From an uncultured delta proteobacterium (GTDB lineage Bacteria > Myxococcota_A > Polyangia > Polyangiales > Polyangiaceae), in contig CAWIUL010000011.1 of NCBI GenBank assembly GCA_963839305.1, positions 2,569,561 to 2,633,560 on the forward strand: DNA of 64,000 bases, written 5' to 3'. The notes below the pieces were generated by a model that did no database searches, was not told the origin of the DNA, and saw only the letters and a program-made list of their open reading frames with translations. Below are positions 1,092 through 58,812 of the stretch, one piece after another (positions within the stretch are counted from its first letter, which is position 1; each line of letters begins with the position of its first letter). A program made the translations under genes and the position numbers.

Positions 1092-2142
1092 GGTCCTTCG
1101 ATGGCATGCAACGTGCGAACCCGTCGCCGTGCGGTTCTGGCTTCTGCTTTTTTCGCTGACCGCCGGATTGGTCTTCGCCAAACCCGCCGACGCGCAGTGC
1201 ACGTCGAATGCCTCGTCGTGTGTGACATGTCACGAGACGCAGGGCCTGCGACCCGTGCTGCAAAGCAAGCAGGCTTGGCACGTCGATCACGGTTTTGGTG
1301 ATCTCTGCGCGTCTTGCCACGGGGGCGATCCCACGACGCCGACCAAGGCGCAAGCGCACCTCGGTCGACGCGACCCACTGGCCGATCCCGCCACGTCCTG
1401 CGCAGGCTGTCACGCGAGCGATGCAGCTGCGCGTGCGGAGCGGTACCGCGCGGCAGCGAGCCCTGCGATCGCGCCGGTGTCGCCGCCACCCTCGAGCCCT
1501 TCGTCGCCATCGTCATCGACAGGCGCGTCGACGGCCGATCGCGTTCTCGCGATCGTCGCCGCGGTTCTCGCCTTCGCGCTCTACGTCGTCGTGCGCCGCA
1601 AGATCACGGGTTCGCAGCGCACCTTCTTGGCGTGGCTTCGTGAGAAGAGGTGGTCTCCCTACGCCGCCGGTGTGATGCTCGGGCTCGTCATCGCGTTCTC
1701 CGAGGTGATCTGCGCGCGTCCGCTCGGCGCGGCGGGCGCGTTCGACAAGCTCGCGGCCTATCCCGGACGTTGGCTCTTCCCGAAGAGTCAATACTACGGC
1801 CACGTCATGTCGCCCGGGATCACGTGGCAGGTGTGGCTCATCGTCGGCGTGATCGTGGGCTCGTTCGCGTCGAGCAAGCTGTCGGGAGAAGCGCGGCTTC
1901 GTTGGCTTCCCGATACGCAGTGGCGGCCGCGCTTCGGCAACAGCCGCAAGCTGCGGCTCGTCGTCGCGTTCTTCGGCGCCGTTCTCGTCCAGGTCGGCGC
2001 GGGGATCGCGGGCGGCTGCACGAGCGGTCTCGCGATGTCAGGCGGCGCCGCGCTCGCACCGGGGGCGTTTCTCTTCATGGCGGGCATGTTCGCGGGCGGC
2101 ATCCCGACGGCGTGGCTCTTTTACCGCGGGAGGGCAGAGTGA
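1090..2142 (+). CDS. Triheme c-type cytochrome domain (3x CxxCH) fused to YeeE/YedE-family (sulfur-transport, TsuA-like) membrane half
   Basis: Signal peptide MVLRW...LLLFSLTAGLVFAKPADA (alternative GTG start at 1129). Three heme motifs CVTCH, CASCH and CAGCH, then a Pro/Ser linker, a TM helix and the YeeE/YedE hallmark GIAGGCTSGLAMSGG. One continuous frame in the ORF track. Confidence 0.75.
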   Translation: MVLRWHATCEPVAVRFWLLLFSLTAGLVFAKPADAQCTSNASSCVTCHETQGLRPVLQSKQAWHVDHGFGDLCASCHGGDPTTPTKAQAHLGRRDPLADPATSCAGCHASDAAARAERYRAAASPAIAPVSPPPSSPSSPSSSTGASTADRVLAIVAAVLAFALYVVVRRKITGSQRTFLAWLREKRWSPYAAGVMLGLVIAFSEVICARPLGAAGAFDKLAAYPGRWLFPKSQYYGHVMSPGITWQVWLIVGVIVGSFASSKLSGEARLRWLPDTQWRPRFGNSRKLRLVVAFFGAVLVQVGAGIAGGCTSGLAMSGGAALAPGAFLFMAGMFAGGIPTAWLFYRGRAE

Positions 2143-2681
2143 TGTTCGACGTCGTCAAAGCCCTCGTGCTCGGCTTCCTCTTCGGATGGTCACTGCACAA
2201 GGCTGGCCTCACGCACTACGCGCGCATCGTGAACGTCTATCGGCTCCGCGACCTGACCGTGTTGCGCTTCATGCTGACCGCGCTCGTGGTCGGCGCGTTC
2301 GCCAACCAAGCCGGCGTCGCCCTTGGGTTCGCGGCGAGCGTGCCCGTTCCGCCGACGTCGCTGGCCAACGTCATCGGCGGGGTCGTGTTCGGCGTCGGAA
2401 TGGCGACCGCGGGCTACTGCCCGGGCACGGTCGCCGCCCAAGCCGGAGAGGGACACCTCGACGCTTGGGTGGCTGGGCTCTCGGGTCTGCTCGTCGGCGC
2501 CATCGTCTTCGGGCTACTCCAACCGAACATCATGCCGAAGCTCGCGCCGCTCGGCGCGCTTGGGCGCGTCACCGTCGCAGGGCTCACGGGCGCGAGCCCC
2601 TGGTTGGTGCTGCTCGTCTTCGCTCAGCTCGTCGTGCTCACGCTCACGCTCACCGCTCGCGTGGGACGGAGCGCGGCGTGA
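2142..2681 (+). CDS. YeeE/YedE-family membrane protein (second half of split thiosulfate/sulfur transporter)
   Basis: MFDVVKALVLGFLFGWSLHKAGLTHYARIV... with the conserved GYCPGT motif. The ATG overlaps the upstream stop (TGATG), indicating translational coupling. Confidence 0.75.
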   Translation: MFDVVKALVLGFLFGWSLHKAGLTHYARIVNVYRLRDLTVLRFMLTALVVGAFANQAGVALGFAASVPVPPTSLANVIGGVVFGVGMATAGYCPGTVAAQAGEGHLDAWVAGLSGLLVGAIVFGLLQPNIMPKLAPLGALGRVTVAGLTGASPWLVLLVFAQLVVLTLTLTARVGRSAA

Positions 2682-4010
2682 TCACTGGCACTGCGTCGAG
2701 CACTGGCTCGAGCACGCGCTCGTGCAGAGGCAGCTGTAGTAGCTGTCGAACGCGCTCGTTTGGCCGCTCGAGTACGTGCTGTAGCAAGTGCTCGAGCACG
2801 ACGTGTTGCCGTTGCACGCCATGATGCACGACACGAGCGACTTGCACGTCCCGGTGCACGCGGCGTATTCGGACCCGCACATGCCCGTGCTCGAGTCGGC
2901 GCTCGCCTGGCACGAGCTGCACGTGCCGCCCGAAGCCTGGCACTGGCCGTTGTAGCAAGAGCCGCCGCCGCACGAGTTGCCGCACGCGCCGCAGTTGCTC
3001 GGATCCGAATTCGTGTCGACGCACTTCGTTCCGCAAGAGGTCTGCGAGGACTTGCACGCTTGGAGCGCGATCGACTCGGTCGACGTGGTCATGAGATCGA
3101 GCCACGCCTTGGGCTGCACGGTCGCGGCGTCGAGCGTGCCGACGGTCTTCGCGTCTTGGTGGCGCTCGAGGCGAACGCGTTCGATCGAGAGATCGAGCGC
3201 TTGGACGTTGCTCGTGCCGAGCACCTGCGTGATGACGTCGCGTGGGAGCGAGAACGCGCCGCTCGAGTCTTGCGCGAGGCAGCGCGCGGAGCCGCCGGCG
3301 CCGGTGAGGCTCACGTAGACGCGATCGTTTCCGGGCAGCCACCCGAGCATGACGTCCGACGAGCCGAACACTTCGTCGAGGCTCAGTTGATCGAGCGGAG
3401 GGTTCGCTTCGAGGAGCGTCGTCGCCTTGAAGGACACGTCGAACGCGGTGAAGCCCGCGCCCGTGGGACCTGCCGATTGAACGCGCAGATCGACGCCCGG
3501 CGCGAACGGCGAGCCCTCGTCGGAGGTCTTCCAGCCGTACGGCGGATAGACGGCGATCGGCATGTTCGTGCCGGAGATCGCGATAGGCCCCGAGTCGAAG
3601 GTTTGGATCGCCTTGCAGCTCTGTGAGCCGTCGCCGGCGCGGACGCATTGCTGTCCGTCGCCGCACGAGAGCGTGCACGCGGGAATGCACGCGGCGTTGC
3701 AGCCGTCGTCGAACCCGCAGGTCTCGCCGGTCTTGCAGCCGAGGCTCGAGCAGTCGGGAGCTTGCGTGATCGTGCACGTCGCGAGCTGCGACTGCCCGCA
3801 CGACGTGAGCACGCTGGACGTGTCGGGGACGAACGAGACCGACACGCTCGGCGTCACGACGCTCGAATTCGGCGCGTGCGAGGCCGAGAGCACGATGGTG
3901 CCCTGCGCGCGCACCGTCTGATCCGCGAGCGGATCGGTGAAGCTGACGTTCGTCGCACACGCGAAAGCGAAGGCGAGCAGACCGCTCGCGAGCAAGTGGG
4001 ATTGGCGCAT
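2682..4010 (-). CDS. Secreted cysteine-rich protein with myxobacterial-type Cys-rich repeats
   Basis: Signal peptide MRQSHLLASGLLAFAFACA, then 442 aa with about 45 Cys in CxxC/CGxC clusters (CGACGNSCGGGSCYNGQC) and Ser/Thr richness. Codon usage is consistent with the rest of the window. Confidence 0.6.
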   Translation of the reverse strand: MRQSHLLASGLLAFAFACATNVSFTDPLADQTVRAQGTIVLSASHAPNSSVVTPSVSVSFVPDTSSVLTSCGQSQLATCTITQAPDCSSLGCKTGETCGFDDGCNAACIPACTLSCGDGQQCVRAGDGSQSCKAIQTFDSGPIAISGTNMPIAVYPPYGWKTSDEGSPFAPGVDLRVQSAGPTGAGFTAFDVSFKATTLLEANPPLDQLSLDEVFGSSDVMLGWLPGNDRVYVSLTGAGGSARCLAQDSSGAFSLPRDVITQVLGTSNVQALDLSIERVRLERHQDAKTVGTLDAATVQPKAWLDLMTTSTESIALQACKSSQTSCGTKCVDTNSDPSNCGACGNSCGGGSCYNGQCQASGGTCSSCQASADSSTGMCGSEYAACTGTCKSLVSCIMACNGNTSCSSTCYSTYSSGQTSAFDSYYSCLCTSACSSQCSTQCQ

Positions 4011-4058
4011 CTTGATTGTCTCCGCGCGTGGATACGCACACGCGCGGACAATCTCCCC

Positions 4059-7000
4059 TCACACGAGAAGCAGCGCGCCCTCCGCGGGCATCCCCGTGGC
4101 CTCGGACACGGCGCGCGCGTAGAGGCGGACCTGCGCCTCGTAGGCGGCCTTCGCTTCGGCGAGCTCGTGGTCGGTCTTGAAATCGACGATCATCCACGCG
4201 TCGCCGCGGCGAAACGCGAGGTCGAGCACGCCCTCGACCAGCGTGCCGTCGGCCTCGCGGAGGACGATCGGCGACTCGCGCCGGTGATCCGACGCGGCCG
4301 CCTCGCGCACGAGCGGGTGCTTCAGGGCGGAGATCGCCGCGGCGGTCGCGTGCTTCGCGTCCGAGTCGCTCGCGCCGAGCATGCGCGCTTGAACGTGCGC
4401 GACCTTGGCGATCGCGTCGGCGTTGGCGTCGAGCGCGACCTCCGCGAGCACGGAGTGGACGAGCACGCCGAACGATTTTCCGCGCGGGCGCCCAGCGCGC
4501 TCGGCGTCGGTCTTGTGGACCGCGACGGGCAAGAGCGACACGGGCCCACCGAGCTTGCTGCGCGTCGTGACGATCTCGACGCGGTGCGTGGGCTCCTTGC
4601 CGCGAGCGATCGCCTCTTGGCGCGCCGTGCGCCAAGTGTCGTGCTCGCGCTCGCTCGTCGCGTCGCGACCGCCCGCGTCGTCGACGGCGAGGATCCTCTG
4701 CTGGCGGAGCCCGGCGTCTTGCGCGGCGGTGAGCTTGAGCGCGCGCGGATCCCACCACACGACCGTGTGCGTCCCCGTTTGCGGAATGTGGAGGCCAGGG
4801 CGCACGGCGCTCCGCTTGTCGCGCTCGGTCTTTTGCGGTCGCTCGAGCACCGAGTCGTCGCCGAACGCGGGACAACCCGGCGCTTCGTGCGCCGCGCGCC
4901 AATCCTCCGGACGCGGATAGACTGCAGGGCCGAGCGGCGAGAGCCACCAACCCGGGTCGATGCCTTCGTCGCCGACGACCGGCACGACCAGCAGATCGCG
5001 CGCGCGCGTCGCGGCGACGTACGTGAGGCGCACGGCCTCTTCCTCGTCGTGACGGAGCACCTGCTCGCGCCGCTCGAGGAGCTCGATGGGCGTGCAGCCC
5101 TCGAGCGTCGTCGCCCACAGTTTCTTGTCGGGGTCGAGGTACCGCGACGGCTTGTTCGAGACGAGCGTGCACGACGGGTCGACGAGCACGACCACGGGGA
5201 ACTCGAGGCCCTTCGCCTTGTGCACGGTCATGATGCGCACGCCCTCGGTCCCCTCTTCGACGACGGGAGCCTCGGCGCCGCCGCCGCGATCCTCCTCTTC
5301 TTCGAGGTGACGCACGAACGCGCGGAAGCTCGTCGCGCCCGCGGCCTCGAAGCGCCGCGCGTCGTCGAGCAAGCGGAGCAAATTGGCGAGCGCCTGCTCG
5401 CCCGTCGGCCAAATCGCGATGCCCGCGTGCGCGCGCGTGCGCTCGAGGAGCTCCGCGATCGAGTCGGCGATGGGGCGCCGATTGCGGCGCGCGTGGAGGT
5501 GACGGAGGATCTCGAGCGCCTCGCCGATGGGCTTCGTGTGCTCGTCGAGGTCCTTCGGCACGTGCGTCGGGCGGAGCGCCCCGTGCCGCGTTCGATACAA
5601 GAGGAGCGCGTCGTCGGAGATGGCGACGAGCGGGCCGCGAAGCGTCGCGAAGACCGAGAGCTCGTCGTCGGGCCACTCGATCGCGGAGAGCGCGTTCTTC
5701 AGCGCGACGACCTCTTCGCGTTTGTAGAACGAGCGACCGCCGACGAGCACGTGCGGCACGCGGCGCTGCTCGAGCGCGCGCACGTACCCGCGCGTGACGT
5801 CCTCGCCGAAGCTCACGAAGCGACGGAACAAGAGGCACACGTGGTTCGCCTTGATCGGCACGCGCGCGCCGCGGTCCTCGACGGTCCACTTGCTCTCGCG
5901 GATCAACCAGTCGATGAACGCGGCGATCGCGTCGGGGAGCGACTCGCTCACCTGCCACTGCGTCACCTTGCCGGATTTGTCCGAGTAGGGGCGCGGGACC
6001 GGGAGCGCGACGAGCGACGGCTGATTCGCTGGGTCCTCCCGGTGTTTTTCGAGCGGCACGTACTCGGCCTGGCTCCCGTCGGGGCTGCCTTGCATGCGTG
6101 GCGAGAACGACGCGTTGATCGCGCTCTGGATCGCGGGGGTCGAGCGGAAGCTCGTCTGGAGGTGAAGGAGCTTGGCCCCCTGCGCGAGGAGCTGCCGCTT
6201 CACGCGCTCGTAGAGCATCACGTCGGCGCGGCGGAATCGGTAGATCGACTGCTTCGGATCGCCAACGACGAACAGCTTGCCCGGCGCGACGCGCACGTCG
6301 AACGCGTTCCGCACCGCGGGATCGTTCGCGCAGAGGAGCAAGAGGATCTCCGCCTGGAGCGGATCGGTGTCCTGGAACTCGTCGACGAGCACGTGCGAGA
6401 AGCGCGCCTGGAGCTCCGAGCGCGCCTTCGGGTTCGCGACGAGCATGTCGCGCGTCTCGAGCAGCAGATCGAGGAAGTCGAGCTTGCCGAGCTTTCGCTT
6501 CACGTCGCCGTACTGCTTCACGAGGTCTTGGAGATCGGCGTGGAGGCACGCGGCGAGATCGGCCTCGGCGCGCTGGAGGACGTTCTCGAGATCCGCGCGC
6601 GCGGCGTCACGCTCGTCGATCACCGTCTGCTTCGCGACGCCCTTGGCGAACTGCTTCGGGCCGCCGACGTACTTCCACGTGCGCACGCGCGAGAGCGTGC
6701 GGAGCTCCTCTTCGAGCCCGTCGTAGTCGCGCTTCCACGCGGCGCCGCTCTCGGTAGAGGAGTTGTCGATCTGCTCGCGGCGATCGAGCTCGTGGATGAA
6801 GCGCTTGATCTCGAGGAGGTTCTGCGAGAGCCAGGTGGTCTTGTCGAGCGCGGCGTCGAAGTACTTCGCGACGTCGCGGAGGCGCGTCACGATCGCGTCG
6901 AGCTCGCCCGCGCGATCGAACGGGTCGCGGCGCCACGGGTGATCGAAGTCGCGCTGATCGACGAGCTGAAGGCCCGCGCGACGCAGCAAATTGCGGGGTC

Positions 7001-7550: not shown

Positions 7551-10500
7551 GCGCGCTCCCGCAGGCGCGAGAGCGGGACGATGTCCTTCGCGGGCTTCTT
7601 CGCGACGCGCGTCTCCTCGTAAGGCCCGCAGATGCGTTGGTAGTCGCACCACCTGCACTCGCCCTTCGCGGGGACCGCGGGGAGAAAGCCGCGCTCGATC
7701 GCGTCGTGGATCGTGGTCGCGACGAGCTTGGCCTCTTCGCGCGCGGAGGTGTCGAGCGGGATCGGGACCGACGTGTAGTCGCCGGCGGACGTGCAGTAAT
7801 AGAGGCGGCCGCCCCACACCGTCCCGCCGAGGAGCTTCTCGATCGCGAGCGCGTAGAGGACGGGCTGGAGCGTCTTGCCGCCGCCGATGATCGTCGACTC
7901 GTCTGCGCGGACCTTTCCGGATTTGTGATCGGTCGCGCGGAGCCAGCCGTCGCGATCGCGCCGCTCGACGAGGTCGATCGATCCGCGAAGCTTGATTCCG
8001 CAATCGAGATCGAGCGGTTTTTCCGCGCTCTTGGGGTCCTGCTGCTCGCGGCGATCCTTCGCGAGGCCGAACGAGAGCTCGAAGTGCGCGGGGATCCAGC
8101 CGCGCTCGCTCTCGTCGGTCGCCATGCGGCGTAGCCACTCGGCGAGATCGGCGCGGATGCGCGCGACGCCGTCCTCCCAGACGCGCGGGATCGCCGGCTT
8201 GAGGTCGTCCTCGTAGCGCGAGGCGACCGTCGCGGTGGAGCGATCGAGCACCACGCGCGCGGCGGAGAGGTTCGACATCGTGACGGGCAAGAGCTTTTCG
8301 TCTCGCAGCGCGCAGAGCGTCTCGAACTGCGCCTCGTGCATCATCGAGCCGCGCTGGAGCGGATCGATCTCCTCGAGCGGCGCAGGCTCCTCGCGCGGCG
8401 CAAGGCGGTGCACGGCCTGGAGCAGGAACTTGTACGGACACGAGGCGAAGTTCTGGAGCGCCGTCGGCGAGAACGAGCGCGCGGAGAGGTCGTGCTTCTT
8501 GAGGGCTTCGTGCGCCGCGGCGCTCGGGTGGACGAGCCCGTCCGAGCGATACCAGCGGACGTTGTTCCACCGCTCGGCGCGGAAGCGGAGCGCGCGGCCG
8601 AGGTGCGGGTTCGACGTGAGGAGGTAGCGCGCCGCGCCGACGGTCTCCTCCGAAGGAAGCTGCAAGACGCGCTCGAGGATCGCGAGGTCGTACTCGGCGT
8701 CGTCGATCGCGTCCTTGGCGTGGAGCGGCGCGGGCCACCCGATGCGCACGCTGGCGCTCGATGCGCGCCGCGCGAGATCGTCGAAGCCAGGGAGCACGCC
8801 CTCGGCCGCGCGCACGAGCTCGAGCGCGTAGAACGAGGGCGTTCGCGGGCGCGCCTGGTCCACGTCGAGGCGCGGGTAGCTCGCGACGACGCGGCGAGAA
8901 GCCGCGCCCACCGCGAGGCGAAGCGCGAGCCTCTCGTTTGCCGAGCGCTCGTCGTTCTTTCGAAGGCCCGAGTCCGCGCGGATCCCGTCGGGGAGGATCG
9001 GGTCCTCGATGACCTTCTGCGGGAACATCTTCTCCGCGAGGCCGGGCACGAAGACCACGTCGAACTCCATGCCGCGCGCCTCTTCGGGCGTCGCGATGAA
9101 GATCTTTCCGTAGCGCGAGCCGCTCGGCGGATCGATCACGTCCGTGAGGCGCTGCTCGAGCACGAGGCGCACCTCGCGAAGATCGATCGGCCCTACCTCG
9201 GACATCGGCTCGAGCTCCGCGAGCGCGGCTTGGACGCGCGTCGGCTTGCGGAGCGCGCGGCTCGCGAGCACCGAGAGCGACTCGATCCACTGGCCCCACG
9301 TCGCGCTCTCGGGGAGCGCCTCGAGCTCGTCGAGGAGCGGGAGCGCGAAATCTCGCAGCGCGCCGAGCGCGTCGATCGAGCGTTCGAAGCTCGCGACGCG
9401 CTCCTCGGCGTAGCGCTTCGCGTTCTCGAGGTCGGCCTGGAGCTCGGCCTGCAAGCCTTCGAGCCTTCGCGCCCAGCGCGCTTTGTCCTCGATGACCGCC
9501 GCGTCGACGAGCAGGCGCTCCCAGAGGCGCGGCGCGCGGAGCGTGCCGTGCTCGACCGGCGACTCGTCCTCGGCGGGCTCGAGGCCCTCTTCGTCTTCGC
9601 CTTCCTCGTACGACGCGCGCGAGACGACGTCCGCGACGACCTCCGAGTCCGGCGGGACCCAGCGGCTGCCTTCGTCCTTCGCGGGCGGTGGCGCGCCGAG
9701 CGGATCGGCGCGCGGGATCTCGCCGAGCGAGAGGTACTCGGCGAAGCGCATCGCGGAGAGCGACTCGAGCTTGCACGCGAGGAGCGCGAGGAGCGCGCGT
9801 CCCGAGGGATCCGGGCGCGCGGTGCCACGCGCGAAATGCGCCGGGATCGTCGCGCGGCGGAGCGCCTCCTCGAGGTGCGCGCGATAACGGCTCGGCGCGC
9901 GGAGCAGGACCGCCATGCGATCGAAGCGCGTCCCGCGCTCGGCCTCGGCCTTCGCGATGCGCACGATCTCGACGCACTCGCGGCTCTCGCCGGGCGCCGA
10001 GAACATCGTGAGCGACTCGTCCGGCGCGCGGAGCTCCGTGTGCTCGGAGAAGAGCTGCTCCTGGATGGCCGCGGGCGCGCCGATCGGGGCGAGGCGATCG
10101 ATCGACGACAGGGCGCGGACGTGGCTCATCGTGCCGTCGTCGCCGTGGGGGACCGTGATGATCGCGCCCTTCGCGCGCGCGAAGATCGCCGCGAGGAGCT
10201 CCGACTCGAGCTCGGACTCGATCGCGACGTCGAAGAACACCGTGGGCCTGTCGAGGAGCGCGTGCGGCGCGGGATCCTTCGCGCGCGCGAGCGCGGCCTC
10301 GAGGACCGCGGCGCGATCGGCGAGCTTCACCTCGGAGAGCAGGTCGACGAACGGACCGGCGAGGCGCGCGAGGTCCTTCACCTCGGGCGAGTCCCCGAGC
10401 GACGACGGGTCGACGCGCGCGAGGCGAACTTCTTCGAGGGTGCGCGCGAGCGCCTTCGGCAGCCCGGGGAAATCCGCGATCGGAGCGAGCCGCTCGAGCT

Positions 10501-10840
10501 CGCCGCGCTGCCTCGCGCGATGCACGAGCCGCGCGCAGAGCGCCTCGACGCCGAGCGCCCCAACCGGAACGAGGCCGCGCTCGGCGAGCGCTGGCGCCGC
10601 AAGCGTTCCGGCGAGGCGAGCGAACGTGACGCGTTGCCACCCGAACACCGCGCCGCCCTCCTGCACCTCGCGCCGCGCGAGGTCCGCGAGCGCGTCTTTT
10701 CCGGGGCCGACGAGGACGACGTCTGCGGCGCGCCCGCGCTCCGCGAGGAACTGCCGGACGCGCGAAAGGCGCGCCGTGGCGGAGCTAGAGGCGAAGGCGA
10801 TCGCGGCCATGGACGGGTTGATGCTAATCCATCCCGCCAT
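7547..10840 (-). CDS. addB: Helicase-nuclease subunit B-like (AddB-like, PD-(D/E)xK nuclease with 4-Cys Fe-S motif)
   Basis: About 1100 aa. C-terminal nuclease region has IDLVERRDRDGWLRATDHKSGK plus YYCTS...CRWCDYQRIC, a four-Cys cluster typical of AddB. No canonical Walker A. Immediately upstream of addA. The start may be at 10810 (MAAIAF...) instead. Confidence 0.75.
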   Translation of the reverse strand: MAGWISINPSMAAIAFASSSATARLSRVRQFLAERGRAADVVLVGPGKDALADLARREVQEGGAVFGWQRVTFARLAGTLAAPALAERGLVPVGALGVEALCARLVHRARQRGELERLAPIADFPGLPKALARTLEEVRLARVDPSSLGDSPEVKDLARLAGPFVDLLSEVKLADRAAVLEAALARAKDPAPHALLDRPTVFFDVAIESELESELLAAIFARAKGAIITVPHGDDGTMSHVRALSSIDRLAPIGAPAAIQEQLFSEHTELRAPDESLTMFSAPGESRECVEIVRIAKAEAERGTRFDRMAVLLRAPSRYRAHLEEALRRATIPAHFARGTARPDPSGRALLALLACKLESLSAMRFAEYLSLGEIPRADPLGAPPPAKDEGSRWVPPDSEVVADVVSRASYEEGEDEEGLEPAEDESPVEHGTLRAPRLWERLLVDAAVIEDKARWARRLEGLQAELQADLENAKRYAEERVASFERSIDALGALRDFALPLLDELEALPESATWGQWIESLSVLASRALRKPTRVQAALAELEPMSEVGPIDLREVRLVLEQRLTDVIDPPSGSRYGKIFIATPEEARGMEFDVVFVPGLAEKMFPQKVIEDPILPDGIRADSGLRKNDERSANERLALRLAVGAASRRVVASYPRLDVDQARPRTPSFYALELVRAAEGVLPGFDDLARRASSASVRIGWPAPLHAKDAIDDAEYDLAILERVLQLPSEETVGAARYLLTSNPHLGRALRFRAERWNNVRWYRSDGLVHPSAAAHEALKKHDLSARSFSPTALQNFASCPYKFLLQAVHRLAPREEPAPLEEIDPLQRGSMMHEAQFETLCALRDEKLLPVTMSNLSAARVVLDRSTATVASRYEDDLKPAIPRVWEDGVARIRADLAEWLRRMATDESERGWIPAHFELSFGLAKDRREQQDPKSAEKPLDLDCGIKLRGSIDLVERRDRDGWLRATDHKSGKVRADESTIIGGGKTLQPVLYALAIEKLLGGTVWGGRLYYCTSAGDYTSVPIPLDTSAREEAKLVATTIHDAIERGFLPAVPAKGECRWCDYQRICGPYEETRVAKKPAKDIVPLSRLRERA

Positions 10841-13031
10841 GCTCGCGGCCTGGGGTCGATTTGTCTTTCGGCACCGCTTGTTCGTACTGCTCTGCTGCGG
10901 CGTCTGCGTCGCGTTCGGGCTCATCGGGCTGCGCGACGGCGGCCCGCTCACGACCGGCACCCTGAAGGACCTCGAGTCGACGCACGCCGCGAAGGCTGCG
11001 CAAGAGGCGCTCGGCGATCGCGCGGGCCCGAACGTCATCGCGCTCTTCCGGAGCGACGAGCTCACGGTGGACGATCCGTCGTTCTACGAAAAAATGGGCG
11101 ACGCGCTCGCGCCGCTCGAGCACGACAAGCACGTCGCGTCCATCCTCTCGCCCGTCGAGGCGCCCACTCGCATCGGCGAGACGCTCGTTTCGAGCGACCG
11201 ACACGAGGCGCTCGCGGTCATCACGCTGCACGGCAACATCACGGACGCGAAGAAGGCCTTCCCGGACATCCGCGACGAGATCAAGCCGGGCGCGTTCAAG
11301 ATCCAATACACGGGCGACGCGAAATACCGCGCCGATCTCGACGACACGCTCCGGAGCGATCTGTTCGTCGCCGAGCTCGTGAGCCTCCCGCTCGCGCTCC
11401 TCGTGCTCATCGTCGTCTTTCGGAGCGTCGTCGCCGCGACGCTGCCCGTGATCACCGGCGGCCTCGCCGTGCTCTCGGCGATCGCGTGCATCCTCCAGAT
11501 CGCGCGCTTCACCGACATGGCGCAGTACACGCTCAACGTCGCGTCGCTCATAGGGCTCGGCTTGGCGATCGACTACTCGCTCTTCTACACGAGCCGCTTC
11601 CGCGAGGAGCTCGCGGGCGGCGCGTCCGTCGAGCAAGCCATCGAGACCGCGATGGCCACGGCCGGACACGCCGTCCTCGGGAGCGGGCTCGCGGCGGGCG
11701 TCGGGCTCTCGGGGCTCCTCTTCTTCAAGCACTCGTACGTCTCGGCGATGGGGCTCGCGGGCGGCGTCGTCGTCGTCCTCTCGATGGCCTCGGCGCTCAC
11801 GCTCCTGCCCGCGCTCCTCGCGATCCTCGGCAAGCGCGTCGACGCGGGCTCGTTCGGACGCAAGGGCGTCGCCGACGGCCGCGTGTGGCGGCGCATCGTC
11901 CCGAAGGTGATGGCGCACCCGATCGCGGTGCTCGTGCCGACGCTCGCGATCGTGCTCGCGCTCGGCTTGCCGTTCCGCCGCATCGACACGGCGAGCGCGT
12001 TCGTCGGCGTCCTTCCGATGAAGACCGAAGCGCGCGCGACGTACGAGAAGATCCGCGCGGATTTCCCCGCGCAAGCGAACAACCGCATCCTCGTGGTCGT
12101 CGAGTTTCCGACGCCCGAGCTCACCGAAGAGCGCGTCCATGCGCTCCGCGCGCTGCGCGATCGGATCGCGAAGCTCCCCGGCGTGGAGCGCGTCGACAGC
12201 CTCTTGGACTTCGATCCCACGCTCCCGCCCGATCAGGCAGACAAGATTTTGTCGCTCGCGCCCGACCTTCGTCCGATCGACGTCGCGGGAGCGCTCGCTC
12301 ACCTCTCGGGCGGAAGCACGCATTTGATGTACGTCGAGACGCGCGGCCTCCCTCGGACGGCCGAGGCGCGCGCCGCGGTGCACGCGATTCGAACCGATCG
12401 CAGCGTCGGCGACGGCAAGCTGCAGGTCGGCGGCCTGTCCGCGGTCGACGTCGACACGAACGCCTTCTTCGCCGAGCACACGCCCGCGGCCGTCGCGTTC
12501 GTCGCGACGCTCACGTACCTGATCCTCTTCGCGCTCTTCCGGTCCGTCGTCCTGCCGCTCAAGGCGGTCATCACCAACCTCTTGTCGATCACCGCGTCGT
12601 TCGGCGCGCTCGTGTGGATCTTCCAAGAAGGCCACTTCGCGTCGGTCTTGAAGTTCGAGCCTGGGCCCGTCGAGCCCACGCTGCCCGTCCTCCTCTTCTG
12701 CGTCGTGTTCGGTTTGTCGATGGACTACGAGGTGCTGCTCCTCAGCCGCATGCAGGAGGAGCACCTGAAGCACGGCGACAACGCGCGCGCCGTCACCGAG
12801 GGCCTCGCGCGGAGCGGGCGGCTCATCACCAGCGCCGCGGCGATCATGGTGTCGGTCTTCGCGGCGTTCTCGATGGCGAGCGTCGTCATGATGAAGGCGA
12901 TGGGCGTCGCGATGGCGATCGCGGTCGCGCTCGACGCGACGGTCGTGCGCACGCTCCTCGTTCCCGCGGCGATGCGCCTGTTCGGCGAGCTCAACTGGTG
13001 GGCGCCGTTTGGCCTATCGCGTCGCCGATGA
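10839..13031 (+). CDS. MMPL-family (RND superfamily) membrane exporter
   Basis: N-terminus MLAAWGRFVFRHRLFVLLCCG matches the MmpL start pattern. Twelve TM helices in two clusters separated by periplasmic loops; GLAIDYSLFY and GLSMDYEVLL motifs. Alternative in-frame starts at 10809 and 10821. Confidence 0.8.
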   Translation: MLAAWGRFVFRHRLFVLLCCGVCVAFGLIGLRDGGPLTTGTLKDLESTHAAKAAQEALGDRAGPNVIALFRSDELTVDDPSFYEKMGDALAPLEHDKHVASILSPVEAPTRIGETLVSSDRHEALAVITLHGNITDAKKAFPDIRDEIKPGAFKIQYTGDAKYRADLDDTLRSDLFVAELVSLPLALLVLIVVFRSVVAATLPVITGGLAVLSAIACILQIARFTDMAQYTLNVASLIGLGLAIDYSLFYTSRFREELAGGASVEQAIETAMATAGHAVLGSGLAAGVGLSGLLFFKHSYVSAMGLAGGVVVVLSMASALTLLPALLAILGKRVDAGSFGRKGVADGRVWRRIVPKVMAHPIAVLVPTLAIVLALGLPFRRIDTASAFVGVLPMKTEARATYEKIRADFPAQANNRILVVVEFPTPELTEERVHALRALRDRIAKLPGVERVDSLLDFDPTLPPDQADKILSLAPDLRPIDVAGALAHLSGGSTHLMYVETRGLPRTAEARAAVHAIRTDRSVGDGKLQVGGLSAVDVDTNAFFAEHTPAAVAFVATLTYLILFALFRSVVLPLKAVITNLLSITASFGALVWIFQEGHFASVLKFEPGPVEPTLPVLLFCVVFGLSMDYEVLLLSRMQEEHLKHGDNARAVTEGLARSGRLITSAAAIMVSVFAAFSMASVVMMKAMGVAMAIAVALDATVVRTLLVPAAMRLFGELNWWAPFGLSRRR

Positions 13032-17513: not shown

Positions 17514-18452
17514 GTGGGAGTCCGTGTGCTCGGCGGTTTCTTGGTGGCGCTCGTCCTGGGCAGCGCCATCTCCGCCGTGCCGTCGTCGATATTTCGGCTG
17601 AAACCCGCTGAAATTCACGTGCAGTCTGCAAAGGTCACCGACGAGCGCGCCGCGCCGGCGCCGGTCGTCGAGTCGGGGCTGCCCGCGCCGGGCGACATGT
17701 CAGGGTGCGAGCTCACGACGGTCAAGTCGCGCGCGTGGCTCCTCGCCGAGGGTCCCGCGCGGGAGCAGGCGAGCCCGCGCCTCGTGACGCTCACGTTCGA
17801 CGACGGACCCGACCCCGACACGACGCCGACGGTGCTGAGGCTCCTCGACAAGCACCACGTGCGCGCCGCGTTCTTCTTCATCGGACGCTACCTCGACGGC
17901 AACAAGCGCCGCGCGGTCCGCTCGCGCGCGGTCGCGCGCGACGTCGCGGCCGCGGGGCACCTCATCGGGAGCCACACGCACGACCACGAGCTGCTCACGA
18001 CGATGACGCACACGCGCGTGCTCGATCAGATCGACGACGGCACCGCCTCGATCGAGCGCGCGATCGGCCGCCACGCCGACCTCTTCCGTCCGCCGTACGG
18101 GCAGCTCGACGCGTTCGGCGAGAAGGCGATCGCCGACCGCCACCTCGGGCTCGTCCTCTGGAGCGTCGAGGCGGGCGACATGCAGGATCCCGACGAGAAC
18201 GAGGTGTTCTCGCACTTGGTCGAGCAGCTCGACTACGCCGCGGGCGGGCTCGTGCTCCTGCACGACGTGAAGTGGCCGAACGTCCGCGTGCTCGCGCGGC
18301 TGCTCGATTGGCTCGACGCAAAAAAGTACTCCGTCGTCGATCTCCCCACGTATTTCCGGGAAACGCGCGCCCATCCGCAGCCGTACGCGTCGCGCAAGGA
18401 GCTCGAGGACGCTCGCGCCGCGGCGTGGCGCGCATCACACCCGCGCACGTGA
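17514..18452 (+). CDS. Polysaccharide deacetylase (NodB homology domain), secreted
   Basis: NodB motifs TFDDGP, HTHDH, RPPYG and LLHD. GTG start; N-terminal signal-like segment. Confidence 0.8.
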   Translation: MGVRVLGGFLVALVLGSAISAVPSSIFRLKPAEIHVQSAKVTDERAAPAPVVESGLPAPGDMSGCELTTVKSRAWLLAEGPAREQASPRLVTLTFDDGPDPDTTPTVLRLLDKHHVRAAFFFIGRYLDGNKRRAVRSRAVARDVAAAGHLIGSHTHDHELLTTMTHTRVLDQIDDGTASIERAIGRHADLFRPPYGQLDAFGEKAIADRHLGLVLWSVEAGDMQDPDENEVFSHLVEQLDYAAGGLVLLHDVKWPNVRVLARLLDWLDAKKYSVVDLPTYFRETRAHPQPYASRKELEDARAAAWRASHPRT

Positions 18453-18465
18453 TAAGAATTCGGCC

Positions 18466-19197
18466 GTGGCCAAGAAGAAATCGAAGCCAGTGCCGCAAGC
18501 GCAAGCTGCGCAGCCGCAGCCCGAGGCGCCGCAACCCCCGCCGTGGACGTACGCGGCGTACGGCGCGTTCGTGCTGCTCGCGGCCGTCCTCGTCTACAGC
18601 TTCGTGACCGTCGCGCGCGAAGGCGAGTCCCGTCGCGAGTGCGCCGCGCTCTGCCTGACGCACCCGAACTACGCGGGCGCGAGCCTCACCGCGCCCGACT
18701 TCACGCTGAAGGACATGAACGGCGCGGACGTCTCGCTCTCGAGCTATCGCGGCAAGGTCGTCCTCTTGAACTTCTGGGCGTCGTGGTGCGGGCCGTGTCG
18801 CGAGGAGATGCCGGACCTCGGCGAGCTCGCGCAGATCCTGAAGCCCGAGAAGGACGTCGCGCTCGTCACCGTGTCGGTCGACAGCGGCCCAGACGAAGTG
18901 CGCGATCTCCTCAAGACCGTCCTCAAGGGCGACCCGCCGTTCCCGGTGCTCTTCGATCCGAACGGCGACAAGATCGTCAACGGCAAGTACGGCACGCACC
19001 AGTTCCCCGAGACGTGGCTCATCGACAAACGCGGCGTCATCCGCGCGCGCTTCGATGGCGCGCGTCCGTGGCCGAACCCGATCGTCGTCGAGGCGATCGA
19101 GCAGCTCCGCGGCGTCGACTACTGCCCCGTGGAAATCAAAGAAGGCGCCATGACGGGGCGCGCCGCGCACTTCTGCGAAGAGCCCACGGGGAGCTGA
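18466..19197 (+). CDS. TlpA/ResA-family thiol-disulfide oxidoreductase (thioredoxin fold), membrane-anchored
   Basis: N-terminal TM anchor, WCGPC active site and LNFWASWCGPCREEMP context. GTG start. Confidence 0.8.
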   Translation: MAKKKSKPVPQAQAAQPQPEAPQPPPWTYAAYGAFVLLAAVLVYSFVTVAREGESRRECAALCLTHPNYAGASLTAPDFTLKDMNGADVSLSSYRGKVVLLNFWASWCGPCREEMPDLGELAQILKPEKDVALVTVSVDSGPDEVRDLLKTVLKGDPPFPVLFDPNGDKIVNGKYGTHQFPETWLIDKRGVIRARFDGARPWPNPIVVEAIEQLRGVDYCPVEIKEGAMTGRAAHFCEEPTGS

Positions 19198-51826: not shown

Positions 51827-52711
51827 TCAGAACCGAGAGCCGAACGCGAGCCCGGCGTAGCCCGGCCCGATCACGGGCGCGAACGCGGCGGCCTTGGGCT
51901 TCGTGTGCTCGACGAAGTGCCAAACGAGGCCGCCGATCACCGCCGCGAGGCCCACGCCGCCGACGACGAGGCCGACGTTCGAGAGCGTCGTCCCGCGTGA
52001 GTTCAGCGTCTTTCGATCCTGCCCGTCGGACGTGTTCGGCGAAGGACAAGACAAGCTGCCGTCGGGGTTCGACGCACACCCCTGACGCGAGTGCGCGACC
52101 TCACCCTGACCTACGCCGACGAGGACGCCACCGGCGATCAACGCGGCGCCGCCCACGCCGACGACGATCCACGGCGCTGCGGTGTGGCCTCCTCCGCTTG
52201 GCTGCTCGGTGGCTGTCGCCGTTGCGGTTGCAGTCGCCGTCGGCGTGATCGTCGCGGTCGTCGTCGCGGTCGCCGTCACGGTCGGCGCGGTCGCCGTCGC
52301 CGTGCCCTGAGCGAGCTGAGCCTTCAGGTTCTGGATGCGCGTCTGGATCGCCTCGGCGTCCTCGGCCTTCGGGTTTCGCTGCAGGTAAACCTCGAGCGCG
52401 TGGATCGCCTCGGGCTTGTCGCCTTTTCCCTCGTAGGCGCGCGAGATGAAGTTGAGGAGGGCCACCTTGCTGCAATCGCGACGAAACGCGTCGCGGAAGT
52501 TGTCGAGGGCCTTCGGGTAGTCGCCTTTGTCGTACGCCTCGACGCCGACTTTGTACGAGGCGTGCGCGGCTTCGAGCTCGGTCTGCGACAGCTTCGGCGG
52601 CGGATCCGGGCAGGCCGGATACTGCGTGACACCGCCGGTTTGCGCCAGCGCGGGCACCGCGAGCGCGATGCCGATCAAGCAAGCGAGGAGCGATTTCGTA
52701 CGAACGCGCAT
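51827..52711 (-). CDS. Secreted TPR-repeat protein with Thr/Ala-rich linker and C-terminal TM/Gly-zipper segment
   Basis: Signal peptide MRVRTKSLLACLIGIALAVPALAQ. TPR units (YDKGDYPKALDNFRDAF). Linker TATATAPTVTATATTTATITPTATATATATAT. C-terminal GVGGAALIAGGVLVGVG. Confidence 0.65.
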   Translation of the reverse strand: MRVRTKSLLACLIGIALAVPALAQTGGVTQYPACPDPPPKLSQTELEAAHASYKVGVEAYDKGDYPKALDNFRDAFRRDCSKVALLNFISRAYEGKGDKPEAIHALEVYLQRNPKAEDAEAIQTRIQNLKAQLAQGTATATAPTVTATATTTATITPTATATATATATEQPSGGGHTAAPWIVVGVGGAALIAGGVLVGVGQGEVAHSRQGCASNPDGSLSCPSPNTSDGQDRKTLNSRGTTLSNVGLVVGGVGLAAVIGGLVWHFVEHTKPKAAAFAPVIGPGYAGLAFGSRF

Positions 52712-52747
52712 GCGCGCGTGAGCATAGTTCGAAATCATGCCGGCAGC

Positions 52748-53314
52748 CTACTTGCCTGCTTTTGCCGAGAAGACCCGCGCCGCGTCGAGCAGCCAAGCGA
52801 GCGAGGCCGCGTCGGGCCGGAGAGCGGTCGGCGCGAGGACGTAGCCGCCCTGCCGAATCTCGAAATGCACCGGCGCGCGCCAACCGAGCACCAATTTTCG
52901 GACGCTCGAGTTGATCGACACGAGGTCCGACTCGGTCGGCGCGAACGTCGCGAACGCCGCGTCGAACGTGGCGTCGCCGATCATTCGACGCGGCAACGAG
53001 GCGTTCTCGTCGCGGTAGATCGGGTTCACGTCGTTGGTTGCCGCGACGCGCGCGCCGAGCAGGTGCTCGTCTTGTCCGATCGCGATCCAGCCTTCGTCGC
53101 CGACTGCGTAGCCCTCGCGAGGCGTCAGCACGAAGCGCGCGATCGTGAGCGCCGTGGTCTCACCGGTGCTCGAGACCGCGTGCTCGTAGCGAATCGGCGT
53201 GCGAAGCGTGACGTACGGCTCCCACACGCGCAGCCAGCGCTCGTCGGGCTCGGCCTCGTACCGCAGACCCGCGCGCATGGCGAAGTCCACGAGCCACGGA
53301 ACCGGGTCCGGCAT
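52748..53314 (-). CDS. Hypothetical protein (188 aa)
   Basis: MPDPVPWLVDFAMRAGLRYEAEPDERWLRVWEPYVTLRTP..., balanced composition. Confidence 0.45.
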   Translation of the reverse strand: MPDPVPWLVDFAMRAGLRYEAEPDERWLRVWEPYVTLRTPIRYEHAVSSTGETTALTIARFVLTPREGYAVGDEGWIAIGQDEHLLGARVAATNDVNPIYRDENASLPRRMIGDATFDAAFATFAPTESDLVSINSSVRKLVLGWRAPVHFEIRQGGYVLAPTALRPDAASLAWLLDAARVFSAKAGK

Positions 53315-53368: not shown

Positions 53369-53905
53369 TCAATTCGGGGTCACGGCGTCGTGCGGCATCT
53401 TCTCGCCGCTGGCCTGCCGGTTCTTCATCTCGTACTTGCTCGGGCACTTCGCGAGCACGCTCGTCGCCTCGAAGCTGTTGTCGGCGTGGAGCTCGCCCTC
53501 GACCGTCACGCCGACGTCCATCCCGGGGACGTCACGGAACGTGTCGGGGACGACGCATTGCGCGTACTTCACCGGGAGCGCGGTGCCGTTCTTCTCGATC
53601 GTGAAGTCGTACTCGCACGGCTTGTCGTGGTGGACGAGCGACCCGTGAACGAGGTTTCCCTCGACGCGAACGGGCCTTCCGACGAATTTGCCCTTTTCTT
53701 GGATGAGCGCGTCGACCGGCTTCGAGTAAATCGCCTTGTCCTTCATCGTGAAGAGGACGATCGACACGATGGCCACCGCGGCCATGACCAGCCCAACGGC
53801 GAGGAGGACGCCGCTTCCTGCGGCGATTGCCTGCGAGTCGTCGCGGTTTCTGCGGCGACGGGGGATCGCTACACCTGAGTCTTCCGGCGGTTGCTCCTCG
53901 GCCAT
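53369..53905 (-). CDS. ccmE: Cytochrome c maturation heme chaperone CcmE, CxxxY variant
   Basis: TM anchor plus OB-fold: VRVEGNLVHGSLV, YDFTIEKNGTALPVKY, DVPGMDVGVTVEGEL. Heme-binding motif LAKCPSKYE, where Cys replaces the usual His of HxxxY. Confidence 0.75.
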   Translation of the reverse strand: MAEEQPPEDSGVAIPRRRRNRDDSQAIAAGSGVLLAVGLVMAAVAIVSIVLFTMKDKAIYSKPVDALIQEKGKFVGRPVRVEGNLVHGSLVHHDKPCEYDFTIEKNGTALPVKYAQCVVPDTFRDVPGMDVGVTVEGELHADNSFEATSVLAKCPSKYEMKNRQASGEKMPHDAVTPN

Positions 53906-53980
53906 TTACCGAACTTTAGTGCTTGCGCGCGCGTCGTCAATTCGCGCAACGCTCGAAACGGAGCTATCTTCGTTGGAGCG

Positions 53981-54559
53981 ATGGGCGACGTCCTCGCGAG
54001 ACCCGTACTCCTTCTGAACCGGCACTTCGAGCCGGTCCAGGTGACGACCGCAAAGCGCGCGTTTGTCCTCCTCTATGGAGGTGCAGGGCATGCGCTCGAC
54101 GAAGGCGGAGAAGCGTACGATTTCGAGCTCTGGCGCACGCTCCCCGTTCGGCAAGATCGGGACGACGCTTTGCCGATCGTCGGCGGCGAGCTCCGCGTGC
54201 CCCGCGTGCTCCACCTCCACCGTTACGATCGCACGCCGCGCGCGACGGTGCGCCTCACGCGCCGAAACCTGATGCTGCGCGACGCGCACCAGTGCCAGTA
54301 CTGCGGCAAGCGCCCGCCCGTTCGCGATTTGAACATCGACCACGTGCTCCCGCGCTCGCGCGGTGGCGCCGACACGTGGGAGAACCTCGTGACCGCGTGC
54401 CGCGTCTGTAACCTCCGCAAAGGTTGGCGCACGCCGGAAGAAGCGAACATGCGCCTCAATCGAAAGCCGTTTCGTCCGAAGTGGACGATGACCGTGCAGA
54501 TCCTGATGGCGCAGCCCTCGCGGTTCGACGAGTGGGAGCCGTTCCTCAAAGCCTCGTGA
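53981..54559 (+). CDS. HNH endonuclease-family protein
   Basis: CQYCGKRPP...DLNIDHVLPRSRGGADTWENLVTACRVCNLRK (HNH with zinc-binding Cys pairs). Confidence 0.75.
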   Translation: MGDVLARPVLLLNRHFEPVQVTTAKRAFVLLYGGAGHALDEGGEAYDFELWRTLPVRQDRDDALPIVGGELRVPRVLHLHRYDRTPRATVRLTRRNLMLRDAHQCQYCGKRPPVRDLNIDHVLPRSRGGADTWENLVTACRVCNLRKGWRTPEEANMRLNRKPFRPKWTMTVQILMAQPSRFDEWEPFLKAS

Positions 54560-57111: not shown

Positions 57112-57898
57112 CCTCGCTGATCCAGCCCAGGGCGGACCAGCGGGTGAACCACTCGCCGATCTTCGATTCGATCTCTTCGCCTCGGCCGGTCGCCTCCGCG
57201 AGCGCGTCGCCGGCGGCCCCGAGGGACTCGCCGCGCGCGAGGCGGTCGAGCATGTCGTACGCGAGCGGATCCATCTCCTCGCTGTAGAGGAGGAACTTGT
57301 GTCGATAGACCGCGACGCATGACGCCGCGCGCGGGAGGCGCTCGATTGGCCTGCGCTCTTTGTCCGCCCACCATGCGTCTCGCATCTTGTGTGTCGGAAA
57401 CGCGAGGCGCATGAGCTGGAGCGACGGGTGGAACGCGAGGCGCGCGCTCGGCCACGCGTCTTCTGGGATCGCCGCGATCGCAGTCGGATCGAGCGGCGGC
57501 GCGTCGGGCGCGTCGAACGCGTCGATGAAGGCCCATTCGAGGCGAGCGAGATCGGCGAGGAGCTCATCGTCCCGCGTCGCGAGGAACGCGGCGAGGTCTT
57601 CGCCGAGGTGACGGAGCTGGAACTTCTTCGGCGGGTGCGCCGCGAGGTAGTCCCGAACGATCGCTTCGAGCTTCTCGTCGCCCACGAGCGCGAGCAGAAG
57701 CGGGAAGTCCTCGCGCATGCAGTTCACGTGACGAATCCAGAATTGCTCTCGGTAGATGTCGAGCTGACCGATCGGCGACACGCGCTCGTTGCCGCTGAAC
57801 GCGGTCTCGCCGCGCGCGCGCCACTGCGGTTCGTCCGCGATCGACGAGGGGATGACGAGCGCCTCGGCAAAGGCCTTCTGGAGATCGTGGAGCTTCAC
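57098..57898 (-). CDS. DUF2063-family protein (MbnC/BufC/TglI-like partner of MNIO enzymes)
   Basis: The GTG start overlaps the DUF692 stop (GTGA). N-terminal hallmark (V)KLHDLQKAFAEALV matches the DUF2063 L-x-x-LQ-x-x-F signature. 266 aa. Confidence 0.75.
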   Translation of the reverse strand: MKLHDLQKAFAEALVIPSSIADEPQWRARGETAFSGNERVSPIGQLDIYREQFWIRHVNCMREDFPLLLALVGDEKLEAIVRDYLAAHPPKKFQLRHLGEDLAAFLATRDDELLADLARLEWAFIDAFDAPDAPPLDPTAIAAIPEDAWPSARLAFHPSLQLMRLAFPTHKMRDAWWADKERRPIERLPRAASCVAVYRHKFLLYSEEMDPLAYDMLDRLARGESLGAAGDALAEATGRGEEIESKIGEWFTRWSALGWISEVSAG

Positions 57899-58740
57899 TT
57901 CAGGGCTCCTTCGCGGTGTTTTCTCGCGAGCGCGGCTTCCTTCGCGAGGACCTCGAAATCGGGGATGTTCTCGTCCCACTCGATGAGCGTCGAGACCGGA
58001 CCGATTCGGCGGATCGCGCGCTCGTAGAGCGACCACACCTCGGACTTCACGTGATCGGAGTGCGTGTCGAGGAGGTAAGCGCCTTTGTCCGTGTGACCGG
58101 CGAGGTGAATCTGCACGACGCGCTCGGCGGGGATCGCGTCGATGAATTTCTCTGCGTCGAAGCCGTGATTGAAGGCGCTCACGTAGACGTTGTTCACGTC
58201 GAGCAGGATCCCGCAGTCGGCGCGCTCGGCGAGCTCCGCGATGAACTCCCACTCGGGCATCTCGCTCGATTTGTAATCGAGGTAGCTCGACACGTTCTCG
58301 AGCGCGAAGGGCTTTTCAATCGTGCTCTGCACGTGTCGGATGCGCGGCACGACGTGCTCGAGCGCCTCCTTGGTGTAGGGCAGCGGCAAGAGATCGTGGA
58401 GGTCGAGGCCGCTCGCCTTGCAGAAGCAGACGTGGTCGGTGAAGTACGGCGGGTCGAGCGTCCGCACGAGCTTCTTCAGTCGCGTGAGGTAGTCGGCGTC
58501 GAGCTTTTCGACCGCCCCAATCGACAGGCACACGCCGTGAGGGATGACCGTGTGGCGCTCGCGAAGCCGCGCGAGGTTGTCCATCGGTCGACCGCCGCCG
58601 ACCATGTAGTTCTCGCTGACGACCTCGTACCACTCGATGTCGGGCGAGCCGCCGCCCTCGAGCACGTCACGCGCGTGCTTCGGACGAAACCCAACGCCGA
58701 CGCCGAGGTCGGAAATGGCGTGGCGCTCGCGAAAATTCAT
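57895..58740 (-). CDS. DUF692/MNIO (multinuclear non-heme iron oxidase; MbnB/BufB/TglH-like, xylose-isomerase-like TIM barrel)
   Basis: MNFRERHAISDLGVGVGFRPKHARDVLEGGGSPDIEWYEVVSENYM...HGVCLSIG and later HLAGH, typical of the UPF0276/DUF692 family. Confidence 0.85.
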   Translation of the reverse strand: MNFRERHAISDLGVGVGFRPKHARDVLEGGGSPDIEWYEVVSENYMVGGGRPMDNLARLRERHTVIPHGVCLSIGAVEKLDADYLTRLKKLVRTLDPPYFTDHVCFCKASGLDLHDLLPLPYTKEALEHVVPRIRHVQSTIEKPFALENVSSYLDYKSSEMPEWEFIAELAERADCGILLDVNNVYVSAFNHGFDAEKFIDAIPAERVVQIHLAGHTDKGAYLLDTHSDHVKSEVWSLYERAIRRIGPVSTLIEWDENIPDFEVLAKEAALARKHREGALK

Positions 58741-58764
58741 CGGGCCCCAAATATACGAAAGCGC

Positions 58765-58784
58765 CGAGGCCGCGCACGGCCTCG
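58765..58784 (-). terminator. Intercistronic stem-loop (attenuator/partial terminator candidate) between precursor and MNIO genes
   Basis: cgaggccg-cgca-cggcctcg: perfect 8-bp GC-rich stem with a 4-nt loop. On the transcribed strand it is followed by CUUUCGUAUAUUU. Confidence 0.4.
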
Positions 58785-58812
58785 ACGCTTTCTTTCGATG
58801 CGCAGCGAAGGA

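Follow-up and report, generated by a model that had tools for sequence, protein, structure and literature searches.

A Cys-type (CxxxY) CcmE encoded away from other ccm genes in Polyangia

The minus strand of the window, i.e. the whole stretch of 64,000 nucleotides of DNA that was analysed, encodes at 53369..53905 a real CcmE (family PF03100) in which a cysteine stands at the heme-attachment position. The gene is unlinked to other ccm genes, and this solitary state is the rule for its clade, as seen in 92 related loci. We consider it likely, with a probability of roughly 0.8, that the protein is a Cys-type periplasmic heme chaperone of System I (Ccm) whose partner genes are located elsewhere on the chromosome. 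The gene, its upstream region and its product have the following features:

53369..53905, minus strand: ccmE, encoding the probable Cys-type (CxxxY) heme chaperone (ORF listing, Pfam, PDB, Foldseek)
53913..53940, minus strand: promoter-like site TTGACG-16-TAAAGT, ending 8 nt before the ccmE ATG (consensus scan)
53822..53905, minus strand: predicted cytoplasmic N-terminal segment, aa 1-28, with an RRRRNR cluster (low pLDDT, no secondary structure)
53741..53821, minus strand: predicted single transmembrane (TM) anchor helix, aa 29-55 (AF2; aligns with the E. coli CcmE TM helix of 8ce8_E)
53447..53728, minus strand: predicted periplasmic OB-fold beta-barrel, aa 60-153, with the VPDTFRD motif (AF2, Foldseek)
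53615..53617, minus strand: Cys97, first of a clade-specific Cys pair (invariant in the alignment of 29 homologues)
53555..53557, minus strand: Cys117, second of the pair (invariant in the same alignment)
53432..53446, minus strand: heme-attachment motif Cys154-Pro-Ser-Lys-Tyr158, aligned to H130-D-E-N-Y134 of E. coli CcmE

The frame has an ATG start and 178 codons plus stop, and its GC3 of 0.87 is typical for genes of this 68.5% GC window. It matches the CcmE profile PF03100 at E=7e-20 (71.7 bits versus a cutoff of 24.6) over profile positions 5-98 of 99, and among PDB sequences phmmer ranks the E. coli CcmE of the CcmABCDE complex first (8ce8_E, E=6.7e-8). Six NCBIfam CcmE equivalog models also match, all of them below cutoff (the best with 58 bits versus 126); because these scores fall far under the cutoffs, the protein is considered a divergent CcmE. 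The start codon is supported by a homologue (P0001) with 96% identity across 100% of the length. The consensus scan found one promoter-like site versus 0.0 expected in shuffled sequences, a pattern match alone, and a Shine-Dalgarno sequence is not evident before the ATG. If the promoter-like site is real, the ccmE transcript may be leaderless or nearly so.

An AF2 model built from 29 homologues (mean pLDDT 72) consists of a disordered Arg-rich N-terminus, a helix at residues 29-55, a beta-barrel at 60-153 with strands at 60-63, 78-85, 98-105, 108-114, 132-139 and 145-153, and a short C-terminal helix. The best Foldseek matches of the model in the PDB are the CcmE structures 8ce8_E (E=5.5e-8), 1sr3, 1lm0 and 1j6q, followed at a lower rank by 2kct of D. 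vulgaris, and the predicted structure thus places the protein among the OB-folds. The VPDTFRD motif (V119-D125) is invariant in the 29-homologue alignment. The protein has a single N-terminal membrane anchor, helix 29-55, preceded by RRRRNR, of which R17-R19 are nearly invariant (n=29); by the positive-inside rule, the positive charge before the helix suggests an N-in topology.

In the alignment with 8ce8_E, VLAKCPSKYE lies over VLAKHDENYT, with Cys154 on His130 and Tyr158 on Tyr134. The codons on the minus strand read TGC CCG AGC AAG TAC. The protein is therefore not a canonical CcmE with His at the heme position but carries the CxxxY motif of Cys-type CcmEs, C154-P-S-K-Y158, at that position. 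The preliminary description had proposed that the frame encodes a CcmE-family protein, that its OB-fold and TM anchor align with CcmE and that the heme-attachment His is replaced by Cys (LAKCPSKYE). All three proposals are borne out by the family profile, the 8ce8_E alignment, the model and its Foldseek matches.

A search of 5.8 billion proteins returned 2115 relatives of the window CcmE. Among the best 120 of these (61-96% identity), K-C-x-x-x-Y is kept in all 120 and AKCPSKYE is invariant; similarly, V150-K161 (VLAKCPSKYEMK) is invariant in the alignment of 29 diverse homologues. At greater distance, C-x3-Y was found in 99 of 118 representatives clustered at 50% identity. About 15% of such representatives have no Cys at the heme position, and some of these are fragments or frameshifts. 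In P0187, P0220, P0232, P0239, P0242, P0254, P0255 and P0269, C97 and C117 are kept while the heme Cys is replaced by Gly, Val, Thr, Met or Phe; the gene of P0187 (L213 10001-10621) is solitary, on a contig of 31.6 kb. These eight may be degenerate paralogues lacking covalent heme binding, or sequencing artefacts.

Two further cysteines distinguish the clade. C97 and C117 are absent from the E. coli, D. vulgaris and operon-encoded CxxxY CcmEs compared, and they occur together: across 123 representatives, both are present in 111, neither in 11, and one alone in a single fragment. In the AF2 model, C97 precedes strand beta3 (98-105) and C117 follows beta4 (108-114) of the same hairpin. As the two residues flank this hairpin, they should face each other in register, which, together with their strict co-occurrence, suggests a structural C97-C117 disulfide. 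Such a disulfide would be specific to the myxobacterial clade. The combination of a conserved C97/C117 pair and an obligately unlinked gene is undescribed among characterised CcmEs.

CxxxY CcmEs had been named in the preliminary description as known from archaea and Desulfovibrio, and the literature confirms this (PMC9084895). In Methanosarcina acetivorans, cytochrome c maturation depends on ccmE, whose CxxxY product binds heme via the cysteine, the attachment being abolished by C120A (PMC9084895). The gene has a separate locus, next to an isoprenoid gene unrelated to it; ccmABC, ccmF1F2 and ccmG-ccdA have other locations (PMC9084895). D. desulfuricans CxxxY CcmE likewise binds heme via the cysteine (Allen 2006 and Goddard 2010, as cited in PMC9084895). 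By analogy with these proteins, heme would be bound covalently at Cys154 of the window CcmE. The M. acetivorans CcmE (MA4149) and the window CcmE both carry CxxxY and are both unlinked to other ccm genes, so that the functional archaeal gene provides a precedent for the arrangement in the window. The two are likened by motif and gene arrangement alone, the former being archaeal and part of a system without CcmD and CcmH.

The Desulfovibrio protein (2KCT) shares with the window CcmE the OB-fold, VPDTF and, at the heme position, a Cys with residues of the PSK..Y type after it, and 2kct matches the model with a Foldseek TM score of 0.71 on the target and 30% identity. In contrast to the window CcmE, it is without C97/C117, and the sequence similarity is weak (E=0.01-0.04 against a truncated 94-aa construct). 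The Desulfovibrio ccmE gene reportedly lies within a ccm cluster. E. coli CcmE (8CE8 chain E, 1SR3), the best match in the PDB by both sequence and structure, has in common with the window CcmE one N-terminal TM anchor, the OB-fold and a flexible C-terminal tail that carries the heme residue, with Tyr four residues on. Compared with it, the window CcmE has Cys154 for His130, the extra Cys pair, a cytoplasmic N-terminus extended by about 20 residues and, ahead of beta5, an insertion of 4 residues (DVPGMDVG against REG-QG) that is absent from the characterised CcmEs compared. Also, E. coli ccmE lies inside ccmABCDEFGH, unlike the window gene.

Closer relatives in motif are encoded beside ccmF. 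A metagenome scan for the CcmF WWD motif, using one exact GC-biased pattern (WGGxWxWDPVEN), found at least 80 ccmF loci. Among 80 listed loci, 13 encode directly upstream of ccmF a CcmE with KC[PAG]S[KR]YE and without C97/C117. Such operon-encoded CxxxY CcmEs (L092, L094, L095, L098, L102, L113, L132, L134, L148, L151, L159 and that of Metabacillus pB218) have KC[PAG]S[KR]YE in common with the window CcmE at 26-35% identity; they differ from it in lacking the Cys pair and the long N-terminal extension. Among the operon-encoded CcmEs of the listed loci, the nine best BLAST matches of the window CcmE are of the Cys type, and those of the His type rank after them. By sequence similarity, the window CcmE is thus closer to ccmF-linked CxxxY CcmEs than to His-type CcmEs, and the shared motif and overall similarity assign it to a bacterial Cys-type class in which the other members are physically linked to ccmF.

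A complete System I set of this type is present on the 330-kb plasmid pB218 of Metabacillus sp. B2-18 (L209, record 182781-189757), from the Bacillota, in the order ccmE (VKCPSKYE)-ccmF-ccmH...ccmA-like ABC ATPase, ccmB, ccmC, ccmD, tlpA. Bacillota normally use System II. Variant Ccm systems without the thiol-redox protein CcmH have been described (PMC9084895); since pB218 pairs a CxxxY CcmE with an annotated CcmH, the absence of CcmH is not universal for Cys-type systems.

Three other loci from the ccmF scan were considered as possibly myxobacterial and rejected. L135, the strongest candidate for a myxobacterial ccm cluster without ccmE, encodes a CcmF whose homologues come from Thermoanaerobaculia and other Acidobacteriota, and L131 (tlpA-ccdA-ccmF) and L150 have no myxobacterial signature. 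The L135 cluster (796-6012, minus strand, GC3 0.92), assigned to Thermoanaerobaculia, has the order ccmA-ccmB-ccmC-ccmD-ccmF without ccmE and ccmH, and its CcmF, of 826 aa, bears a long C-terminal extension. An unlinked ccmE may therefore occur in Acidobacteriota too. L127 (169-3207, plus strand) contains an ORF of 1013 aa with CcmF domains (Cytochrom_C_asm and CcmF_C) plus a C-terminal CcmH domain, an apparent CcmF-CcmH fusion.

In the 64-kb window, Pfam searches on about 40 high-GC3 candidate ORFs and tblastn with E. coli CcmA-H (NC_000913.3) revealed no likeness to CcmB, C, D, F or H. Together with the 92 related ccmE loci, about 1.49 Mb were covered, in which no WWD-motif protein and no tblastn match to CcmB, C, D, F, H or CcdA was found; the queries for the related loci were E. 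coli, acidobacterial, L131 and Metabacillus proteins. Similarly, no ccm gene is adjacent in the loci of 11 CcmE relatives, of which 10 have informative flanks and 1 is on a 1.7-kb contig. The view that ccmE is encoded away from other ccm genes thus holds for the window and for all 92 related loci. The ABC ATPase at 384-1229 was rejected as CcmA, as it is ZnuC/AztA-like and CcmA models are missing from its top matches. The only match of the ccm search in the window is a TlpA/ResA/DsbE-family thiol-disulfide oxidoreductase at 18271-19194 (plus strand; ResA model E=4e-24). It is possibly a CcmG-like apocytochrome reductase; it is generic, 34 kb from ccmE and not ccmE-specific.

The only CxxCH-bearing ORF in the window, with three motifs at 1219-1413, lies 52 kb from ccmE, and the suggestion that the window CcmE serves local multiheme proteins has to be given up, since no such proteins are local to it. 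The three CxxCH motifs nevertheless imply a need for a cytochrome c maturation system. The ORF in question (1150-2142, plus strand) encodes a signal-peptide protein with CxxCH at 1219, 1306 and 1399 and a weak Cytochrome_C7 match, in which the CxxCH part is joined to a sulfur-transporter domain resembling YeeE/TsuA (Sulf_transp E=1e-21). Next comes another YeeE-like ORF, which extends to about 2681. The fusion of a cytochrome c to a domain of a thiosulfate-transporter family is unusual.

As a System I chaperone, the window CcmE would use helix 29-55 as its N-in anchor at the inner membrane, and its OB-fold would be periplasmic. CcmC(D) would present exported heme, which would form a covalent bond at Cys154 of the flexible tail, with Tyr158 as a ligand. 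CcmAB would drive the release of holo-CcmE, and CcmF would then take the heme from CcmE and ligate it to CxxCH of apocytochromes. The partnership with CcmC and CcmF is proposed by analogy with known systems, and the genes of the partners would occupy other chromosomal sites, like those of Methanosarcina. The preliminary description had likewise suggested a pairing with ccm genes located elsewhere, and this is still the most likely reading.

Alternatively, the protein could be an orphan CcmE-like heme carrier, buffer or sensor in organisms that have left the Ccm pathway and have System II or no CcmC/CcmF. We regard this as unlikely, although several observations fit it. The gene is linked to no ccm gene in the 92 loci, which represent several subclades and differing contexts, and no CcmF attributable to Myxococcota was recovered among the 80 listed metagenome loci; this negative scan, however, comes from one exact GC-biased pattern. 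Further, the scores are under the NCBIfam equivalog cutoffs, the Cys pair is clade-specific and some clade members are without the heme cysteine. On the other hand, a missing linkage is not the same as absence from the genome, as the functional unlinked ccmE of M. acetivorans illustrates, and both the heme motif and the VPDxFR motif common to all CcmEs are invariant here. Within general knowledge of System I, CcmE is loaded by CcmC only, and we know of no CcmC-independent role. Quite unlikely, too, is that the three-Cys clade comprises autonomous chaperones that are separated from CcmC/CcmF, or have other partners, and use C97-C117 as a redox switch.

The genes that accompany the probable System I chaperone gene in the window include three downstream ORFs on the same strand:

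52748..53314, minus strand: gene X, 188 aa, co-directional, downstream of ccmE (context)
51827..52738, minus strand: gene Y, 303 aa, co-directional, downstream; signal peptide, TPR, two C-terminal hydrophobic segments
50370-51191, minus strand: gene Z, FNR-like, with a weak NAD_binding_1 match

Gene X has no Pfam, NCBIfam or PDB match and no signal peptide. Gene Y matches the Pfam models TPR_2 and TPR_16 and no CcmI or CcmH model, its best NCBIfam matches being Ycf3 and BamD. Among the 63 loci with enough flank, X is directly downstream of ccmE in 39, Y is downstream on the same strand in 54, Z follows ccmE-X-Y in 41, and the order ccmE-X-Y-Z is kept on one strand in 35. No terminator-like sites are present on the minus strand between the four genes. 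A high-GC3 ORF at 50947-51822 (plus strand) overlaps the likewise high-GC3 gene Z on the opposite strand. The corresponding gene of L001 and L003, a convergent neighbour, bears a weak Fe_bilin_red tag, which was dismissed: Pfam does not reproduce it on the window ORF, and the gene is in only 9 of 63 loci.

Other parts of the clade have other contexts. A marine Polyangiales subclade has ccmE within the array atpI-atpB-atpE-ccmE-pyrR-pyrB. In seven Polyangiaceae/Sorangium-like loci (L070, L075, L076, L078, L080, L081 and L083, at about 10430-11490 of the 20-kb loci), the next gene downstream of the solitary ccmE, with the same orientation, is hemE, for uroporphyrinogen decarboxylase; this adjacency connects ccmE to heme metabolism in a small but independent way. 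In more distant members, ccmE comes after Tad pilus genes or after a gene for a chromate transporter or a chorismate-binding enzyme. X and Y are absent from other subclades and are thus not universal partners of ccmE.

The conserved order with its lack of terminator-like sites would fit a lineage-specific ccmE-X-Y-Z module, for example one with Y as a CcmI-like apocytochrome chaperone; CcmI and CcmH carry TPR domains, as Y does. We consider such a module very unlikely. The array is absent elsewhere in the clade, where ccmE follows atpE, precedes hemE or has yet other neighbours, and the wider flanks are also syntenic among close relatives, so that shared ancestry explains the X-Y-Z order. In addition, X is devoid of a signal peptide and a detectable family, and Y was rejected as a CcmI/CcmH analogue, given that it fits generic TPR models rather than CcmI and that its synteny is confined to one subclade.

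It is extremely improbable that the three invariant cysteines of the periplasmic domain serve a thiol-redox or metal-binding role on a CcmE-derived OB-fold in place of heme attachment, despite the existence of variant Ccm systems without the thiol-redox CcmH (PMC9084895), as Cys154 is exactly at the heme position, with Tyr four residues on and a KCPSKYE context like that of ccmF-linked CcmEs, and as C97 and C117, which are separated by 20 residues across a hairpin instead of forming a CxxC, look structural.

The Cys-type System I chaperone proposed here is widely distributed among myxobacteria. Named proteins among the best 120 of the 2115 relatives are CcmEs of Polyangiaceae or Labilithrix; the name CcmE is already given to proteins of the clade by public annotation pipelines. 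A HMMER pass over 1.84 billion representatives at 50% identity gave 1052 matches at E<1e-3. Nearly all of the top 150, with identities as low as about 35%, have C97, C117, C154 and Y158. A scan in which each GTDB species was represented by a single genome gave at least 580 species-level genomes that encode a relative of the window CcmE. The 80 genomes listed are Polyangiaceae, Polyangiales, Labilithrix, Sorangium and Polyangium MAGs, plus some loosely labelled as Myxococcales, delta proteobacterium or Proteobacteria. Assemblies with a solitary ccmE include GCA_047601445.1 (JASGJH010000001.1, 9.5 Mb in one contig), GCA_019637175.1 (Labilithrix sp. ACE_MYX8), CAVSWE01 (MFD05705.bin.2.131, 2.7-Mb contig) and CAVXQZ01 (4.0-Mb contig). 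The origin of the closest homologues from Polyangiaceae, Polyangiales and Labilithrix MAGs supports the myxobacterial context. A plasmid search found no myxobacterial replicon with a CcmE of the window type, and a literature search on CcmE or ccmF in Myxococcus, Myxococcota, Polyangia, Sorangium and Anaeromyxobacter found nothing on this system.

The preliminary description had considered a solitary CxxxY ccmE notable in a myxobacterium. This does not stand: with relatives in at least 580 species genomes and a solitary gene in 92 of 92 related loci, hundreds of Polyangia genomes have it as their standard form, and it is no notable exception. Nor is CxxxY itself a rarity, such CcmEs being common also beside ccmF in other bacterial phyla. 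The Cys type, usually described as archaeal and found in "a few bacteria like Desulfovibrio", is hereby extended to a very large Polyangia clade, and this clade, the ccmF-linked examples elsewhere and the Bacillota plasmid together show a wide bacterial distribution of the Cys type. The three-Cys subfamily with its unlinked gene is a potentially useful natural variant for the study of how Cys-type CcmEs hold and release heme. The current picture of System I is unchanged by the window CcmE, and its importance is modest.

Upstream of ccmE, on the opposite strand, is an HNH endonuclease gene (53981-54559, plus strand) that was found in 58 of 68 loci with a median identity of 78% and is more conserved than CcmE. 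Further upstream, the minus strand encodes at 57895-58812 an enzyme of the MbnB/TglH/ChrH family (E=5.5e-107). In relatives (L001 4787-6737; L002 4226-6244), the gene of this enzyme is preceded by an ORF of 75-86 aa and is followed by that of an HvfC_N protein. The region looks like a RiPP-like or Hvf-type cluster, which close relatives have kept at a distance of about 4-6 kb on the upstream side of ccmE.
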